DNA from: Escherichia coli
GTDB taxonomy: Bacteria; Pseudomonadota; Gammaproteobacteria; Enterobacterales; Enterobacteriaceae
Strand: one strand, 5' to 3'
Length of the DNA stretch: 64,000 nucleotides
Assembly (NCBI RefSeq): GCF_003334305.1
Contig: NZ_QOWS01000020.1
Each line of letters starts with the position of its first letter. Position 1 is the stretch's first letter. The notes under the pieces were generated by a model. That model ran no database searches. It saw only the letters and a list, made by a program, of their open reading frames with translations, and was not told the DNA's origin. This document shows, piece after piece, positions 1 to 64,000 of the stretch. The position numbers and the translations under genes are program-made.

Positions 1-203
1 CCGGGCAGGGCGATGTCGGTTTCACCGGGAAGGACCTTTGCACCCAGCAGCGGATTGACCGGATGGCCGGACGTCACTCCGCCGGGGCACACCGAACAGG
101 CCACGCCGGTGGGGGCACCAATGCGCACCCCGGCTGAACCCTGAACAATGCTACCGCCATACTGCGTCATGTCGCCCTGACGCGCTGCCGGTTTTCCGCT
201 CAT
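1..203 (-). CDS. rhsA: Rhs-family polymorphic toxin, N-terminal fragment (start codon at 201-203; rest of gene lies beyond the window start)
   Basis: Own translation of minus strand from ATG 201-203 gives MSGKPAARQGDMTQYGGSIVQGSAGVRI..., the conserved Rhs N-terminus; divergent from yibF as in K-12 synteny. Confidence 0.6.
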   Translation of the reverse strand, partial: MSGKPAARQGDMTQYGGSIVQGSAGVRIGAPTGVACSVCPGGVTSGHPVNPLLGAKVLPGETDIALP

Positions 204-431
204 CTGCTCATCCTTGTTTTATCGGGTTATTTGTCTGCTTCCAGGCAAAACCCTACAGATTTATAAGAAAGCCTTAAGTGAGATATCCATCAGATAGAAA
301 CAATTAGGAAAATATTTATATCACCATGATAAATATGTGATTTATTTGGAAGTAACAAACCATCAACATTTTCTGCCCTTTTTCCCATCACCAGGCCATA
401 CTGATATTTTTCCTCGCACAAAGGACTCGGC

Positions 432-1040
432 ATGAAACTCGTCGGTAGCTACACCAGCCCGTTTGTACGCAAACTTTCTATTCTGTTGTTAGAAAAGGGC
501 ATAACTTTCGAATTTATTAATGAACTGCCCTATAACGCGGACAACGGCGTGGCGCAATTTAACCCGTTAGGAAAAGTGCCGGTGCTGGTGACCGAAGAGG
601 GCGAATGTTGGTTTGATTCGCCGATCATCGCTGAATATATTGAATTAATGAATGTCGCTCCGGCGATGTTGCCGCGCGATCCGCTGGAGTCGTTGCGGGT
701 GCGCAAAATTGAGGCACTGGCGGATGGCATTATGGATGCCGGGCTGGTATCGGTGCGTGAACAGGCGCGTCCAGCGGCGCAGCAGTCTGAAGATGAATTG
801 TTACGCCAGCGGGAGAAAATCAACCGCAGTCTGGATGTGCTGGAAGGATATCTGGTCGATGGCACACTCAAAACCGATACGGTCAATCTGGCGACTATCG
901 CCATTGCCTGTGCCGTCGGATATCTCAATTTCCGCCGCGTTGCGCCAGGCTGGTGTGTCGATCGCCCACACTTAGTCAAACTGGTCGAAAACCTGTTTAG
1001 CCGCGAAAGTTTTGCTCGCACCGAACCGCCAAAGGCTTGA
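432..1040 (+). CDS. yibF: glutathione S-transferase family protein
   Basis: 202-aa ORF, ATG 432, TGA 1038-1040; GST-like N-terminal thioredoxin fold motif (SPFVRK); synteny next to selA. Confidence 0.85.
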
Positions 1041-7958: not shown

Positions 7959-8282
7959 ATGTTCCTGGACTATTTTGCACTGGGAGTGCTTATTTTTGTA
8001 TTTCTGGTGATCTTCTATGGGATCATTATTTTACATGATATTCCCTACCTGATTGCCAAAAAACGTAATCATCCTCATGCCGACGCCATTCATGTTGCTG
8101 GTTGGGTGAGTCTTTTTACGTTACATGTTATCTGGCCGTTTTTGTGGATTTGGGCCACGCTTTACCGCCCGGAGCGGGGATGGGGAATGCAAAGCCATGA
8201 TTCATCCGTTATGCAACTGCAACAGCGCATTGCCGGGCTGGAGAAACAGCTCGCCGACATCAAATCCTCTTCTGCCGAGTAA
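7959..8282 (+). CDS. yiaW: small inner-membrane protein (DUF3302 family)
   Basis: 107 aa from ATG 7959 preceded by agggaaat; two hydrophobic helices; 5 nt upstream of yiaV. Confidence 0.8.
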
Positions 8283-8287
8283 TACTT

Positions 8288-9424
8288 ATGGATTTACTGA
8301 TTATTTTGACCTATGTGGCTTTTGCATGGGCAATGTTTAAGATCTTCAAAATTCCCGTAAATAAATGGACCATTCCCACAGCGGCCCTGGGTGGAATATT
8401 TATTGTCAGCGGTCTAATTCTGTTAATGAACTATAACCATCCGTATACCTTCAAAGCGCAAAAAGCGGTTATTTCTATTCCTGTTGTCCCACAGGTGACA
8501 GGCGTGGTGATCGAAGTGACGGATAAGAAAAATACGCTGATTAAAAAAGGTGAGGTGCTATTTCGACTGGACCCGACGCGTTATCAGGCGCGGGTGGATC
8601 GGCTGATGGCGGATATCGTTACCGCAGAACATAAACAGCGGGCGTTGGGCGCAGAGTTAGATGAGATGGCGGCGAATACTCAGCAGGCAAAGGCCACGCG
8701 GGATAAATTCGCTAAAGAGTATCAGCGTTACGCACGCGGCAGCCAGGCGAAAGTAAACCCGTTTTCAGAACGCGATATTGATGTGGCGCGGCAAAATTAT
8801 CTGGCGCAGGAAGCCTCCGTAAAGTCATCGGCGGCGGAACAAAAACAGATCCAGAGCCAGCTGGATAGCCTGGTGTTGGGTGAACATTCTCAAATCGCCA
8901 GCCTGAAAGCGCAGCTCGCGGAAGCAAAATATAACCTTGAGCAGACGATAGTGCGTGCGCCGAGCGATGGTTATGTGACCCAGGTGCTGATTCGTCCGGG
9001 TACCTATGCCGCGTCGCTGCCGCTACGTCCGGTGATGGTGTTTATACCCGATCAGAAACGACAAATTGTGGCGCAGTTCCGTCAGAACTCCTTGCTGCGA
9101 CTGGCCCCTGGCGACGATGCGGAAGTGGTGTTTAACGCTCTGCCAGGCAAAGTGTTCAGCGGTAAGCTGGCAGCCATTAGTCCAGCTGTTCCCGGCGGAG
9201 CTTATCAGTCGACCGGCACCTTACAGACGTTAAACACAGCGCCGGGTTCAGATGGCGTTATCGCGACCATTGAACTGGATGAGCACACTGATTTGAGCGC
9301 TTTACCAGACGGTATTTACGCCCAGGTGGCGGTCTACTCTGATCATTTCAGCCATGTCTCGGTGATGCGCAAAGTGCTGTTACGCATGACCAGTTGGGTG
9401 CATTACCTTTATCTCGATCATTAA
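8288..9424 (+). CDS. yiaV: membrane-fusion (HlyD/EmrA-family) periplasmic adaptor protein
   Basis: 378 aa; N-terminal TM anchor then long coiled-coil-type region; synteny with yiaW. Confidence 0.85.
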
Positions 9425-11259: not shown

Positions 11260-11605
11260 TTCACCGGTGGATGTCGGTGCGGCTGGTGCTCCGTCGTAAT
11301 GCCACAAAGGTTGTTGCTCTGGATTGCTCTGTTCATACCGGGAACCTGGCGTCTGAATCAGGATCTTATGGCTGAACAATCCCTTGCCTTCAAATGTCGT
11401 AAATGGCGCATCGGCGGGCAGCAACAGGTTATGCAGTGACTCGACGTTGTCGGCCTGCTCCATGCAATACGGTTTAATGACGTTGGCTATTTCCGGCAGA
11501 TTTTTCGCAAGCACACCGGTTTAACGCCAGCAGCGTGGAAGCGGCGTTACAGCAAGGAACATATCAATTCGTAGTGCCGGGGCGATGAAGCCCCGGCGTG
11601 AGGGA

Positions 11606-21326: not shown

Positions 21327-21424
21327 GCCAGATGCGGCGTAAACGCCTTATCCGGCCTACAAATTCTTCCAAATTCAATATATTGCAGAAATCATGTAGG
21401 CCTGATAAGCGTAGCGCATCAGGC
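21327..21424. repeat. REP/BIME element between ysaA and avtA
   Basis: gccagatgcggcgtaaacgccttatccggcctac ... gtaggcctgataagcgtagcgcatcaggc read directly. Confidence 0.75.
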
Positions 21425-40016: not shown

Positions 40017-40189
40017 TTATCGCTAAATAATACAGCAACCTTTAATAATCTTCTGCTGAATAAAGATTATCTCATATATTAATTTTATGAGGTTTTTTTA
40101 GGATTATATCAAGGAGAAGAAACAAACTTATTAAGCTAGAATAGCCACGGGTGCTTGAGACTGTTTGTCTCAGGTATTCACCGAAAGGC

Positions 40190-40260
40190 AGACAGAGAAA
40201 AGCCCCACCTGACTATAAATCAAAGTGAGGCTACCCTATGCCTGAACACCATAAGGTTAG
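40190..40260 (-). ncRNA. sokA: presumptive Sok-type antisense RNA of the hokA locus (approximate position, opposite the mok start / hok leader)
   Basis: Placement inferred from hok/sok family architecture only; ends not determined from sequence. Confidence 0.25.
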
Positions 40261-40534
40261 CCTCTTACTCGTTGGAAATCAACACAGGGGGCTGGGAATG
40301 CCGCAGAAATATAGATTACTTTCTTTAATAGTGATTTGTTTCACGCTTTTATTTTTCACCTGGATGATAAGAGATTCACTGTGTGAATTGCATATTAAAC
40401 AGGGGAGTTATGAGCTGGCGGCATTTTTAGCCTGCAATTTAAAAGAGTTAGAGTCTTCGGCGGGAAGTTATTCCCGCCTTTCTTACGGCGTTGCGCATTC
40501 TCATTGCACCCAAATTTATTTTTCACAAAAATAA
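40238..40534 (+). CDS. mokA: mok-type upstream reading frame, in frame with and encompassing hokA
   Basis: ATG 40238 with SD gtgagg 8 nt upstream; uninterrupted frame through hokA. Confidence 0.5.
   Translation: MPEHHKVSLLLVGNQHRGLGMPQKYRLLSLIVICFTLLFFTWMIRDSLCELHIKQGSYELAAFLACNLKELESSAGSYSRLSYGVAHSHCTQIYFSQK
40298..40534 (+). CDS. hokA: Hok-family type I toxin; frame open for 78 codons, with no stop at the usual ~50-codon position
   Basis: MPQKYRLLSLIVICFTLLFFTWMIRDSLCELHIKQGSYELAAFLAC... from ATG 40298; first in-frame stop TAA 40532-40534. Confidence 0.7.
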   Translation: MPQKYRLLSLIVICFTLLFFTWMIRDSLCELHIKQGSYELAAFLACNLKELESSAGSYSRLSYGVAHSHCTQIYFSQK

Positions 40535-40580: not shown

Positions 40581-40612
40581 ATAAAAAAATCCCCGCCAAA
40601 TGGCAGGGATCT
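40581..40612 (-). terminator. cspA intrinsic terminator (hairpin plus T-tract on minus strand)
   Basis: Minus strand reads TCCCTGCCatttGGCGGGGAttttttt just 3' of cspA stop. Confidence 0.65.
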
Positions 40613-40637
40613 TAGATTCTGTGCTTTTAAGCAGAGA

Positions 40638-40850
40638 TTACAGGCTGGTTACGTTACCAGCTGCCGGGCCTTTAGCGCCGCTTTCGATGGTGAAGGACAC
40701 TTTCTGACCTTCGTCCAGAGATTTGTAACCATCGTTCTGGATAGCAGAGAAGTGTACGAACACGTCTTTAGAGCCATCGTCAGGAGTGATGAAGCCGAAG
40801 CCTTTGTCAGCGTTGAACCATTTTACGATACCAGTCATTTTACCGGACAT
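40638..40850 (-). CDS. cspA: major cold-shock protein CspA
   Basis: 70 aa [21 protein letters not shown]... with RNP1/RNP2 motifs. Confidence 0.95.
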
Positions 40851-41046
40851 AGTGTATTACCTTTAATAATTAAGTGTGCCTTTCGGCGATATGGCGTGCT
40901 TTACAGATTTTGAAGCGTTAAAGGAATGTGCACTACGAGGGGTATCAACGATAACTCTTGAAGGGACTTGCCTTACTACACTGCTTTAATGGTCTGTACG
41001 TCAAACCGTTGATGTGCATTAAGCCACGCATTGGCGGGTGATGCAA
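40851..41046 (-). promoter_or_regulatory. cspA: cspA promoter (-35 TTGCAT at 41041-41046, -10 CTTAAT at 41018-41023, AT-rich UP region upstream) and 159-nt 5' UTR with cold-box / thermosensor leader
   Basis: Minus-strand sequence ...TTGCATcacccgccaatgcgtggCTTAATgcacatcaACGGTTTGACGTACAGACC... matches the known cspA promoter and leader. Confidence 0.85.
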
Positions 41047-52206: not shown

Positions 52207-52283
<77 letters not shown>

Positions 52284-52374: not shown

Positions 52375-52461
52375 TAGGCCTGATAAGACGCGTCAGCGTC
52401 GCATCAGGCAACGGCACCGCACTTATTGTCGGATGCGGCGTGAACGCCTTATTCGACCTAC
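52375..52461. repeat. REP/BIME element between proK and dppA
   Basis: gtaggcctgataagacgcgtcagcgtcgcatcaggc ... gtcggatgcggcgtgaacgccttattcgacctac read directly. Confidence 0.7.
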
Positions 52462-60365: not shown

Positions 60366-60488
60366 GCTGGAGAGAGAAAACCCCCGCACGTTGCAGGTAT
60401 GCACCTGACAACATAACGGGGGCTAATCTTGAACCTAAACAACTCAAGAATAGCCGCGAAACGTTGTCATTACAACACAGGCGGCTAT

Positions 60489-60596
60489 ATGACGCTCGCA
60501 GAGCTGGGCATGGCCTTCTGGCATGATTTAGCGGCTCCGGTCATTGCTGGCATTCTTGCCAGTATGATCGTGAACTGGCTGAACAAGCGGAAGTAA
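60489..60596 (+). CDS. ldr: Ldr-family type I toxin peptide, 35 aa
   Basis: ATG 60489 to TAA 60594-60596: MTLAELGMAFWHDLAAPVIAGILASMIVNWLNKRK. Confidence 0.85.
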   Translation: MTLAELGMAFWHDLAAPVIAGILASMIVNWLNKRK

Positions 60597-60646
60597 CGTG
60601 TCATGCGGGCGTCAGGCTGCCGTAATGGCAATTTGCGCCCGGACCA

Positions 60647-60678
60647 GGCCGCAGGGGTGAAACTCTGCGGCCTTTTTC
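60647..60678 (+). terminator. intrinsic terminator of ldr mRNA, copy 1
   Basis: GGCCGCAGgggtgaaactCTGCGGCCttttt read directly. Confidence 0.75.
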
Positions 60679-60777
60679 GTAAGAAAAATGCAACGGTTGC
60701 AAGCGGATAATATTCTGCGGAATGCGCAGCACAGAGTGAGTAAGTGATGGATTTCGGAACAGAAAAACAGTCGTAGA

Positions 60778-60848
60778 ATCAGCGGCAAGCCGGAAAGGTT
60801 CCGGTAAGGCGCAATGTTGCGGGGGCTTTATCCCTGGTGGCATTGGTT
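60778..60848 (-). ncRNA. rdl: presumptive Rdl-type cis-antisense RNA of LDR copy 2 (approximate)
   Basis: Same reasoning as copy 1. Confidence 0.25.
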
Positions 60849-60971
60849 GCTGGAGAGAGAAAACCCCCGCACGTTGCAGGTATGCACCTGACAACATAAC
60901 GGGGGCTAATCTTGAACCTAAACAACTCAAGAATAGCCGCGAAACGTTGTCATTACAACACAGGCGGCTAT

Positions 60972-61079
60972 ATGACGCTCGCAGAGCTGGGCATGGCCTT
61001 CTGGCATGATTTAGCGGCTCCGGTCATTGCTGGCATTCTTGCCAGTATGATCGTGAACTGGCTGAACAAGCGGAAGTAA
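60972..61079 (+). CDS. ldr: Ldr-family type I toxin peptide, 35 aa (identical to copy 1)
   Basis: ATG 60972 to TAA 61077-61079; identical 108-nt ORF. Confidence 0.85.
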   Translation: MTLAELGMAFWHDLAAPVIAGILASMIVNWLNKRK

Positions 61080-61129
61080 CGTGTCATGCGGGCGTCAGGC
61101 TGCCGTAATGGCAATTTGCGCCCGGATCA

Positions 61130-61161
61130 GGCCGCAGAGGTTAAACTCTGCGGCCTTTTTC
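61130..61161 (+). terminator. intrinsic terminator of ldr mRNA, copy 2
   Basis: GGCCGCAGaggttaaactCTGCGGCCttttt read directly. Confidence 0.75.
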
Positions 61162-61165
61162 GTGC

Positions 61166-62845
61166 TTACTGCGGGTAAGGCACCCAGTCGCCGCCGTTCA
61201 GGCGAACGTACGGTTTATCCTGGTATTGAATAACTACTGCATTTGAGTTCTCGGAGACCGGTGCTGTTTGTGGCAACCCACTGGTGAGTTTTTTCCAGTC
61301 AACATTGTCTTCGGTGAAAATCTTGCCATCAAGAACGCGAACCACCAGATCGGAGATAGCCAGGAAGCTGCTCGGTTGGTCAATGACAATCGGTGCCCCC
61401 TGATGTGGTGCCTTCATGCCGAAGAATTTCACCCCAACGGGGACGTCTGTGATAGACGGGCTAGGGATATCACGTAGGCCAGATACCTGCATTCTGTCGC
61501 CCTTCAGCGCGCCGCCGTGTTCCGGCACCACGACCACCATCACTTTACGACCCGATTTCTCCAGTTCAGTAAAGAAGGCGTCCAGTTCATCAAAGAATTT
61601 CTGCGCCCGCGCTTTGTAATCCGCTGTTTTGCTGACCCCCGGATAATGGTTGCCGTCATGCAGTGGAAGCGTGTTGTAGAACGTGGCACTACGGCTATTT
61701 TTATCTTTTTCGGTAACGTCCAGCCAGCGGTTAAGCACGGCGGTATCGTCATAAACCGGCGAACCATCAAAGCCCAGCAAAATAACCGGCAGATTTGTTT
61801 GATCCATCAATTCAGTCTGCATGCCGCCATTTTCGCGAACTTCTTTCAAAAAACCGCCGAACTGGCCGTTATGCCCCATCATCAGGTGCTGGGTAAAGCC
61901 CAGTTTCGAAAGGTTATCAAACAGATAGCAGTCGTTATTTGCCGGTTGATACAGATTAGTGTGCGAAGTCTGCCCGCAGCTGGCGCGCAGTAAACGGATC
62001 GCCGCCGGGCCACTGTAGGAGGTGGCGGAGTTAAAGTTCTTGAACTCAATATCGAAATGCGACCACAGTGGATGCGACATCAACCCGGCGGCTTCTATAT
62101 CCGACCAGGAAAGCGAACAGATGTTAATCACCAGTAGTTCAAATGGCTGAGCATCAGCGGGCAGCGAAGACGGGAAGGTCGATTTACGTTTCGCCTCCGC
62201 GTTATAGAAATTATTCAGCCAGGCGTTAAGGTTCGCCGTTGTTGGCGGTGCAGTTTGTGCGGGCATATCACCCACTACCGGTGCGCCACCCGTCGCCGCA
62301 ACGGTTGCCGCTGCGTTACCACCCGTCGTTGTTACAGTGGTCGTCGGTTGTCCGGCTGGCCACAAGGAGAAACTTGGTCCCGCCAGGGTAAGTACGCTCA
62401 GCCATAGCAGTATGGCAACCACAAAAACGGTAATGCGAATCCATTGTGACAGGAATAACCAGGCCACTAATAAAACAAAAATGGCCCCAATCATCTGCCA
62501 GTTAATAAAGCGTGTGACAAGGTCGATTAAATAATCGGTACTGAACCCCGCCACCTGCGAACCCTGGCTCATTATGCTTTCCGGGCCAGGCAACCAGGTG
62601 TCATGCCAGAACAAAGCAAAGCCGATCGGCAGGGCAATCCAGTGGCGCAAGCGATGCAGGCTGTAGCGCGGAATGGGCATCAGCAGAAACGCGGCAAACA
62701 CCAAATTGAGGAGCGGATGGAAGTTAAGATATCCCGCCCACAACAGGCCGAACTTAACCAGAAAATAGAAGTTCCAGCCGGAAAGGCCGCGCCAGTATTG
62801 CCAGAGGGAAGAAGGCATGGCGGTATTTTGTGTAAATTGAGTCAT
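61166..62845 (-). CDS. bcsG: cellulose biosynthesis protein BcsG (phosphoethanolamine transferase)
   Basis: 559 aa; N-terminal TM domain plus sulfatase-like domain; overlaps bcsF by 4 nt. Confidence 0.85.
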
Positions 62846-63033
62846 TTTTTGGTTGCCCTAGCTTTTTCCGTGCGGCGTAACGTCCCGGCCGGTTTAACAT
62901 AACGAGGTTTAGCAAAGAACAAACGTAAGGTGTCGCGAATGCGTCGCAAAGAGTGCCGCGCCAGATAGCCCAGCGGGAAAAATATCAGTGCGCAAACGAC
63001 AATAATTTCAATGATATCGCTGATGGTCATCAT
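62842..63033 (-). CDS. bcsF: cellulose biosynthesis protein BcsF
   Basis: 63 aa single-TM protein; overlaps bcsE stop by 4 nt. Confidence 0.8.
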
Positions 63034-64000
63034 GATGAGCGCTCCACAGCATCATCTAACAGTCGCATGGGTTCTGGTATTCGTCGCCAGTGGCGACCAT
63101 CGTGCTCGGCATTGATGACCGGTTTAGAACTTTGCGTTAAAGGCAGCGGCATGCCCCATTGTTCTGGGGCAAGCAAGCGCATCTGCACCAGCTCGGCACT
63201 GATTTGATCATCTTCAAACCAGACCATACGGTTTGAGAAAATGTCGCCAGTAGGCAATGGGAAAATATGATTCAACGCGGTATCCAGATCGTTAATCCGA
63301 CAGAATGAGAGAAACAGCACCAGCCGATTACCGCCAATGGTCATGATATCGCCGGTACGGTTAGGGCGACACAGCGTCAGGGCTTGTTCAACGCGGATAC
63401 CCGGTACCGGACGTAGGGCAACCAGAACGCCTTTACCGTGGGCAGGCAAGAGAGGGTTATTCATCATGTTGTTGACGGCATTACAGAACACATCCCACTT
63501 CTGGAAACCACGCAGTTTGAGCGGCTGGGTCATTGACAGCAAGGTAGTGATATCTTCCGGCACATAGCGACTAAACTTCTGCCCTTGCACGCTTTCGATC
63601 ATCGTCAGACAACGGGAGAGTGGCGCATTCCACGGAATAACCATATTTGCACCGCAGGCCAATAACAAACGTTCATCGGTGGCGCGCAGGCTAGCGGTAT
63701 TTTCCCGCACGAGGATTTTCATCGCACTACCGCGCTGGCGACGCAGGGTATGAATGCTGCGGGCCAGTGGCTCGATTTGCGCATTTTGCTGTAAAGAAAA
63801 GACCACCGTCGCCGCCTGAGCGGTACGGGCTTCATTGAACAGGACTTCGTTATTGTTGAACAGTTGCCAGTGTTCCGATAGCGGCGGCGCACCTTCCAGT
63901 ACAGCAACATTACTCAGAATGCGTTTTTCGTCGCTGCGTGGTTGGATCTCCGCCTCTTCGCTTTGAACTAATGTCCAGATACCATTTTGTTGCTGAACGC
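63030..64000 (-). CDS. bcsE: cellulose biosynthesis protein BcsE (C-terminal part; N-terminus lies beyond the window end)
   Basis: Frame stays open from stop 63030-63032 to the window end (checked codon by codon); track start at 63806 is an internal GTG. Confidence 0.8.

Follow-up and report, generated by a model that had tools for sequence, protein, structure and literature searches.

The start of a known rhs gene at the rhsA locus of an Escherichia coli contig and its predicted continuation into a Tox-JAB-2/YhhH module

The first 203 nucleotides of the 64,000-nucleotide stretch of Escherichia coli DNA analysed here (the window; assembly GCF_003334305.1, contig NZ_QOWS01000020.1) carry, on the minus strand, the 5′ portion of the rhsA locus's main rhs gene. 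The Tox-JAB-2 toxin tip of this gene and its YhhH partner would be encoded beyond the window edge, and delivery of the product by a type VI secretion system (T6SS) is most likely; to this reading as a whole we assign a probability of about 0.85. Work on the rhsA locus next to yibF goes back to the 1980s, and the feature is confirmed as an already known one, the Rhs gene of that locus, in agreement with both the observation and the interpretation offered by a first-pass annotation of the same DNA.

Results

An Rhs gene start at the edge of the window

Reading positions 1-203 as the reverse complement yields 67 codons and 2 further bases that stay free of stop codons up to the edge (MSGKPAARQGDMTQYGGSIVQGSAGVRIGAPTGVACSVCPGGVTSGHPVNPLLGAKVLPGETDIALP), with a peptide that begins MSGKPAARQGD. 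The ATG occupies 201-203 on the minus strand, and a Shine-Dalgarno element, AAGGA, can be read from the sequence 7 nt 5′ of it (211-215, minus strand). The peptide aligns to positions 1-67 of the NCBIfam profile RHS_core (NF041261) with an E value of 1.7e-38, as a conserved enterobacterial Rhs N terminus of this family, and its 132 bits lie under the whole-protein cutoff only because 67 of the 1261 profile positions fall in the window. All 67 residues are identical to those of K-12 RhsA and equally to those of K-12 RhsB, and in the identical sequence of strain A7 (see below) an rhsB coding sequence is annotated from the same start. The first-pass annotation had placed the opening of a conserved Rhs N terminus at this ATG, divergent from yibF and with only 67 codons inside the window, and each of these points is borne out.

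A chance open reading frame at 1-203 is ruled out by the profile E value together with the complete identity to K-12. Also rejected was a plus-strand frame of 43 amino acids at 13-144, an artefact that the GC-rich core produces on its antisense strand. GC content reaches 66.5% in 1-203, against 36.8% in the adjoining spacer (204-431) and 51% in the whole window, and such a GC-rich segment is a classic signature of the Rhs core. A tblastn search across the window found no second Rhs-like sequence.

The AT-rich spacer between rhs and the divergent yibF contains the rhs Shine-Dalgarno element and presumably the promoters of both genes. A scan of positions 1-700 for sigma-70 promoters and terminators found no consensus promoter in the spacer and nothing on the rhs strand; a SELEX paper that names rhsA lists only one peak for it, inside the gene. 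The yibF gene (432-1040, plus strand) is annotated as such, encodes a glutathione S-transferase-like protein matched over its full length by NF007682 (E 7e-123), and is the conserved flank that defines the rhs insertion site.

Farther into the window, yiaW-yiaV (7959-9424), which encode a DUF3302 and an HlyD-family protein, are paralogous to yibI-yibH at the far boundary of the rhs element outside the window, so that similar two-gene modules stand a few kb to either side of the rhs locus. Between yiaT and the sgb/araD operon, positions 11281-11574 hold two short pseudogene remnants, a hypothetical gene and an AraC-family regulator in the A7 annotation.

A predicted N-terminal fragment, cleavage site and plug

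A single PAAR-like motif covers residues 2-29 of the peptide (nt 117-200), which also has a Cys-rich linker, CSVCPGG. Matches to the PAAR families are weak, with an E value of 0.0058 for NCBIfam T6SS_PAAR_dom (NF033420; aligned to positions 68-94 of a 94-position profile, with 16.7 bits where the cutoff is 124) and of 0.18 across 19 residues for Pfam PAAR_motif (PF05488). A complete PAAR domain was rejected on these scores, which lie far under the thresholds of both families. Because the stretch aligns only with the last repeat of the PAAR proteins 9rce_c and 4jiv_D, we call this N terminus PAAR-like and not a PAAR domain.

In Tse5, secretion depends on residues 1-47, a PAAR-like fragment of 5 kDa; cleavage falls between K47 and P48, and DUF6531 follows the cleavage site as an N-terminal plug (PMC10684867). 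Chain B of the Tse5 structure 8cp6 starts at P48 (PVNPMLGSKLLPEE) and from its first residue aligns with residues 48-140 of the E. coli protein (PVNPLLGAKVLPGE). In Pseudomonas protegens RhsA, cleavage occurs at H304/P305, with Ala-Lys at +7/+8 (PMC8765631); the E. coli sequence has H47/P48 and, at the same +7/+8, A55 and K56. Pfam DUF6531 covers residues 46-123 of the full-length A7 protein (E 4.8e-18). The E. coli protein therefore has the layout of Tse5, namely an N-terminal fragment of about 47 residues, an X/P site and a DUF6531 plug, the alignment starting exactly at P48.

From these alignments and the placement of DUF6531, the window is predicted to contain the N-terminal fragment in full, the autocleavage site and the first 20 plug residues. 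The fragment, equivalent to Tse5-NT, would correspond to codons 1-47 (63-203, minus strand), the His-Pro autocleavage site to codons 47-48 (60-65, minus strand) and the beginning of the N-terminal plug of the Rhs shell to codons 48-67 (3-62, minus strand). Autocleavage at His47/Pro48 is thus proposed by analogy with the two Pseudomonas proteins.

Pseudomonas aeruginosa Tse5 (PA2684) is the best solved relative. Besides the 47-residue PAAR-like fragment and the X47/P48 site, it shares the sequence PVNPxLGxKxLP after the cleavage site, the DUF6531 plug, the YD shell and aspartyl-protease cleavage at DPxGL. It differs in its C-terminal toxin tip (CT), which is pore-forming whereas that of the protein considered here is Tox-JAB-2, and in having Lys rather than His before the proline. 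P. protegens RhsA (7q97) likewise has an Rhs cocoon, a plug and an H/P site with Ala-Lys at +7/+8. However, RhsA depends on an Eag chaperone and has a long N terminus in which a prePAAR motif and transmembrane helices accompany a full PAAR domain, while in the E. coli protein the predicted cleavage site comes after only 47 residues.

Strain A7 as a proxy for the sequence beyond position 1

Everything past position 1 was read from a proxy genome, that of strain A7, and not from the window's own record. The first 6 kb of the window have a match in all 5426 complete E. coli genomes, the best being A7 (NZ_CP028767.1), a strain from orangutan faeces, at 100%. By direct comparison the window and A7 are base-for-base identical over 1-26000, 26001-60400, 61101-63517 and 63518-64000, with 61101-63517 at a constant offset of 483 bp. 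Their sole difference is one 483-bp ldr/rdlD repeat unit. The window's array (60375-61100), which belongs to a type I toxin-antitoxin family, has two rdlD copies, at 60375-60440 and 60858-60923, against three ldr genes in A7; this could reflect real copy-number variation or assembly collapse, and no exact match to the window's array was found among complete RefSeq E. coli genomes. The window would thus come from a genome of the A7 lineage or from another assembly of A7 itself. Judged by these identities, A7 is a very strong proxy for the sequence beyond position 1, and still a proxy. An exact-protein look-up returned the 1411-residue Rhs protein only from the A7 assembly, so there is no independent second source for it.

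Several small elements elsewhere in the window were noted during this comparison. The cspA thermoregulator gives a full-length Rfam match of 501 bits at 40583-41010 (minus strand), and the A7 record names the coding sequence at window positions 40638-40850 cspE, which looks like a slip in annotation naming. The window also has a remnant of the hokA/sok type I toxin-antitoxin system (40149-40447), with sok matched by Rfam at 40149-40300 and hokA (40298-40447) marked as an incomplete pseudogene in the A7 annotation. A tRNA-Pro gene (52207-52280) adjoins a match to naRNA4, a REP-derived nucleoid-associated RNA (52377-52458), and an ES036 sRNA match lies at 21361-21403.

The full-length Rhs protein and its toxin module in A7

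In A7 the frame that opens in the window runs on as an intact Rhs gene of 1411 codons, and the rhs gene of the window, given its identity to A7, almost certainly continues in the same way. A frame ending just past the window edge, which the first-pass annotation had named as the outcome that would speak against it, is not what A7 has. The A7 protein is identical to K-12 RhsB at 1391 of 1411 residues (99%) and has 97% identity to K-12 RhsA over the first 1250. As a full-length member of the RHS_core family it scores 2631.7 bits on NF041261 against a cutoff of 2000, and it also matches YD_repeat_2x (E 2.1e-38) and Rhs_assc_core (TIGR03696; 83.8 bits, cutoff 32.5). Its core ends at P1238-ISDI-D1243-PLGL1247 (PISDIDPLGL), which fits the delimiter motif of Rhs proteins, PxxxxDPxGL (PMC3150448), and D1221 provides the other of two putative catalytic aspartates. 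The solved structures closest to the full protein all belong to T6SS Rhs effectors, namely Tse5 (8cp6, E 2.4e-126), P. protegens RhsA (7q97), Tse15, Tre23 and the Rhs core from Salmonella bongori (8qjd) with related T6SS Rhs cores.

The CT of the A7 protein comprises 164 residues and, from DPLGL on, is 100% identical to the K-12 RhsB-CT. The GC fraction is about 0.62 ahead of this point and about 0.33 in the CT. The CT matches Pfam DUF4329 (E 1.7e-39), which is Tox-JAB-2, a domain with the signature E, H[ST]H, S, D (Zhang et al. 2012, PMC3482391), and H1343-T-H1345, S1359 and D1362 of the A7 protein are among these signature residues. Tox-JAB-2 domains are predicted nucleases, and their partners are immunity proteins of the Imm-NTF2-2 type, which are confined to E. 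coli (PMC3482391); a later paper terms Tox-JAB-2 an RNase with reference to other work. In A7 the gene that overlaps the 3′ end of rhs is yhhH, an Imm-NTF2-2 gene (PF15631), so that DUF4329 is followed by a PF15631 gene as in other Tox-JAB-2/Imm-NTF2-2 modules. At the level of sequence the A7 pair shows no difference from the pair described by Zhang et al., a toxin type whose activity is only predicted, and the literature searched yielded no experiment on RhsB-CT/YhhH toxicity or neutralisation.

Downstream of yhhH, A7 has about 35 bp of the 3′ end of rhsA-CT and then an intact yibA, whose product neutralises RhsA-CT according to work cited in PMC3150448. An orphan Rhs-CT 99% identical to K-12 yibJ follows, then yibG, and at the distal end a short Rhs fragment and a frameshifted Imm57 pseudogene precede yibH. 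The A7 locus accordingly has the layout of an Rhs polymorphic toxin, with an AT-rich CT, an immunity gene and orphan CT/immunity modules, and its content is the usual, expected trace of C-terminal displacement (PMC2935791). The first-pass annotation had placed the toxin tip, the immunity gene and the orphan modules beyond position 1, where A7 indeed has them. Its suggestion that the tip and immunity gene might be novel fails in A7, where both are those of K-12 rhsB and yhhH. Given the identity of the window to A7, the RhsB-type Tox-JAB-2/YhhH module is almost certainly the unseen part of the window's rhs gene.

Distribution of the locus and comparison with K-12

Of 5426 complete E. coli genomes, 3721 (about 69%) have the junction of the Rhs start with yibF, and the query finds a median of 3 matching places per genome. 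Where yibF lacks an Rhs neighbour, homology to the window starts at position 395 in most of the genomes sampled and at 432 in a few. Contiguous yhhH-yibA occurs in 1185 of the complete genomes. The interval yibF-yibH is rhs position 10 of E. coli, and nikR-yhhJ is likewise a standard rhs position (PMC2935791). At its nikR-yhhJ site (record positions 4527051-4527682; L003 27052-27683), A7 has a hicAB toxin-antitoxin pair instead of an rhs element.

The K-12 rhsA locus (rhsA-yibA-yibJ-yibG) has the same insertion site and divergent yibF as A7, the same first 67 residues, a core that is 97% identical, and yibA, a yibJ-type orphan CT and yibG downstream. It differs in that RhsA-CT is replaced in A7 by RhsB-CT/yhhH, with about 35 bp of its 3′ end left, and in that yibS, yibW, yibV and yibU occupy the distal end where A7 has the Imm57 pseudogene.

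K-12 RhsB/YhhH (b3482/b3483) matches A7 in the protein (1391/1411, CT 100%), in the overlap of yhhH with the 3′ end of rhs, and in the yibA 5′ sequence that comes after yhhH. In both strains (K-12, L005 6783-7133; A7, L001 15450-15700) yhhH is followed by the last ~35 bp of rhsA-CT and the 5′ part of yibA. The two differ in site, K-12 rhsB lying at nikR-yhhJ and the A7 gene at the rhsA site beside yibF. They differ also in yibA, which is intact in A7 but in K-12 is cut down to the pseudogene yrhC, directly 3′ of which lies the transposase gene yhhI. From yrhC after yhhH, and yhhI downstream, the K-12 rhsB element would seem to be a truncated copy of the rhsA-locus element in its A7-type form.

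A complete T6SS in A7

The T6SS cluster of A7 is complete, with tssM, A, H, K, J, G, F, E, C, B, hcp and vgrG, and is followed by a gene for another Rhs protein of 1411 amino acids. This protein is 69% identical overall to the yibF-linked Rhs and identical at 56 of 67 residues over the stretch encoded in the window. The cluster and its Rhs gene lie at about 950500-985650 of the A7 record (L009 1-35151), next to yafV, a region whose later part has a second, frameshifted rhs together with ydcD and three transposase pseudogenes of ISAs1 (H-repeat) type. The yibF-linked rhs is unlinked to vgrG, and we therefore treat its VgrG loading and T6SS export as plausible steps only. K-12 shares this Rhs clade but, to our knowledge, lacks a T6SS, which counts against the preferred reading and makes a T6SS route for the clade in E. 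coli a putative one.

Discussion

The sequence identities, the domains and the T6SS genes were observed directly; for the cleavages, VgrG loading, secretion and toxicity we infer a course of events from related effectors. By analogy with Tse5, the 47-residue PAAR-like fragment would dock the toxin on the VgrG spike, and the protein would cleave itself at His47/Pro48. The DUF6531 plug, the first strands of which lie in the window, would close the YD-repeat shell, and this YD-repeat cocoon, with a putative aspartyl autoprotease region (D1221, D1243) that ends in PISDIDPLGL, would precede the 164-residue CT. YhhH, from the overlapping gene, would act as the immunity protein to the Tox-JAB-2/DUF4329 CT. 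The RhsB-CT/yhhH module would have displaced rhsA-CT, leaving its remnant with the intact yibA. Delivery would most likely proceed through the strain's own T6SS into neighbouring cells that lack YhhH.

Near relatives of the window bear on whether the source gene is intact. In TUM12355, which over the first 6 kb departs from the window at about one base, an out-of-frame deletion of 1838 bp after about codon 313, in the YD-repeat core (L006 7806-10203), breaks the gene into a DUF6531 fragment and a distinct DUF4329 ORF, and in WL164 and FCI51 only a 'DUF6531 domain-containing protein' is annotated at the rhs position. The TUM12355 deletion could be real decay or a repeat-induced misassembly. Points that weigh on the other side of our preferred explanation are the use of a proxy genome beyond position 1, an ldr array matched exactly by no complete RefSeq genome, PAAR scores under the family thresholds, the absence of vgrG linkage and the negative promoter scan. 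Counted against our preferred explanation, this frameshifting deletion means that rhs inactivation occurs in the lineage, and the source gene might accordingly be a pseudogene, with a genuine N terminus and a frame broken later by deletion, frameshift or IS so that no toxin results. We consider this unlikely, however, because A7, identical over 64 kb outside the ldr array, keeps its 1411-codon frame intact, the rhs of strain H15 is also intact, and the TUM12355 frame, even when deleted, does not end shortly past the window edge. Much harder to sustain is the idea that the source locus has a different, possibly undescribed, tip/immunity pair in place of the RhsB-type tip of A7. The yibF-linked Rhs is indeed polymorphic across E. 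coli, being annotated variously as rhsA, rhsB, DUF8616 and polymorphic toxin type 34, and the yhhH-yibA arrangement is found in only 1185 of 5426 genomes. Yet the window equals A7 save for one repeat unit, both close relatives inspected (TUM12355 and H15) keep the order yhhH-yibA-orphan-yibG-Imm57, most other close relatives are annotated rhsB at the yibF site, and an exchange of the CT that left not a single SNP in the neighbouring 60 kb would be improbable in itself. A source that departs from A7 immediately past position 1, with an undescribed tip/immunity pair at the yibF locus, has, in our estimate, a marginally smaller chance still.

Whether the protein leaves the cell is a separate matter. 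It might act inside it, for example as part of a module resembling a type II toxin-antitoxin system, or be silent as in K-12; the lack of vgrG linkage and of an adjacent chaperone gene, and the failure of the promoter scan to find a consensus promoter, would fit such a role, as would the toxin-antitoxin-like behaviour that a Salmonella study reports for Rhs elements (PMC7043789). Against this, the N-terminal fragment shows conservation with Tse5-NT, a part without which Tse5 is not secreted, and 56 of the 67 residues encoded in the window recur in the vgrG-linked Rhs of A7, a genome with a full T6SS. We accordingly regard an unexported Rhs as improbable and retain T6SS delivery of the Tox-JAB-2 tip as the preferred reading.

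The significance of the finding is small, since the locus is catalogued and common and the inferred toxin/immunity pair is identical to one in K-12. The 67 residues encoded in the window can now be annotated on the Tse5 structure as a predicted N-terminal fragment, cleavage site and plug start. The A7-type order, in which RhsB-CT/yhhH stands before an intact yibA, explains the presence of the yibA fragment yrhC behind K-12 rhsB.
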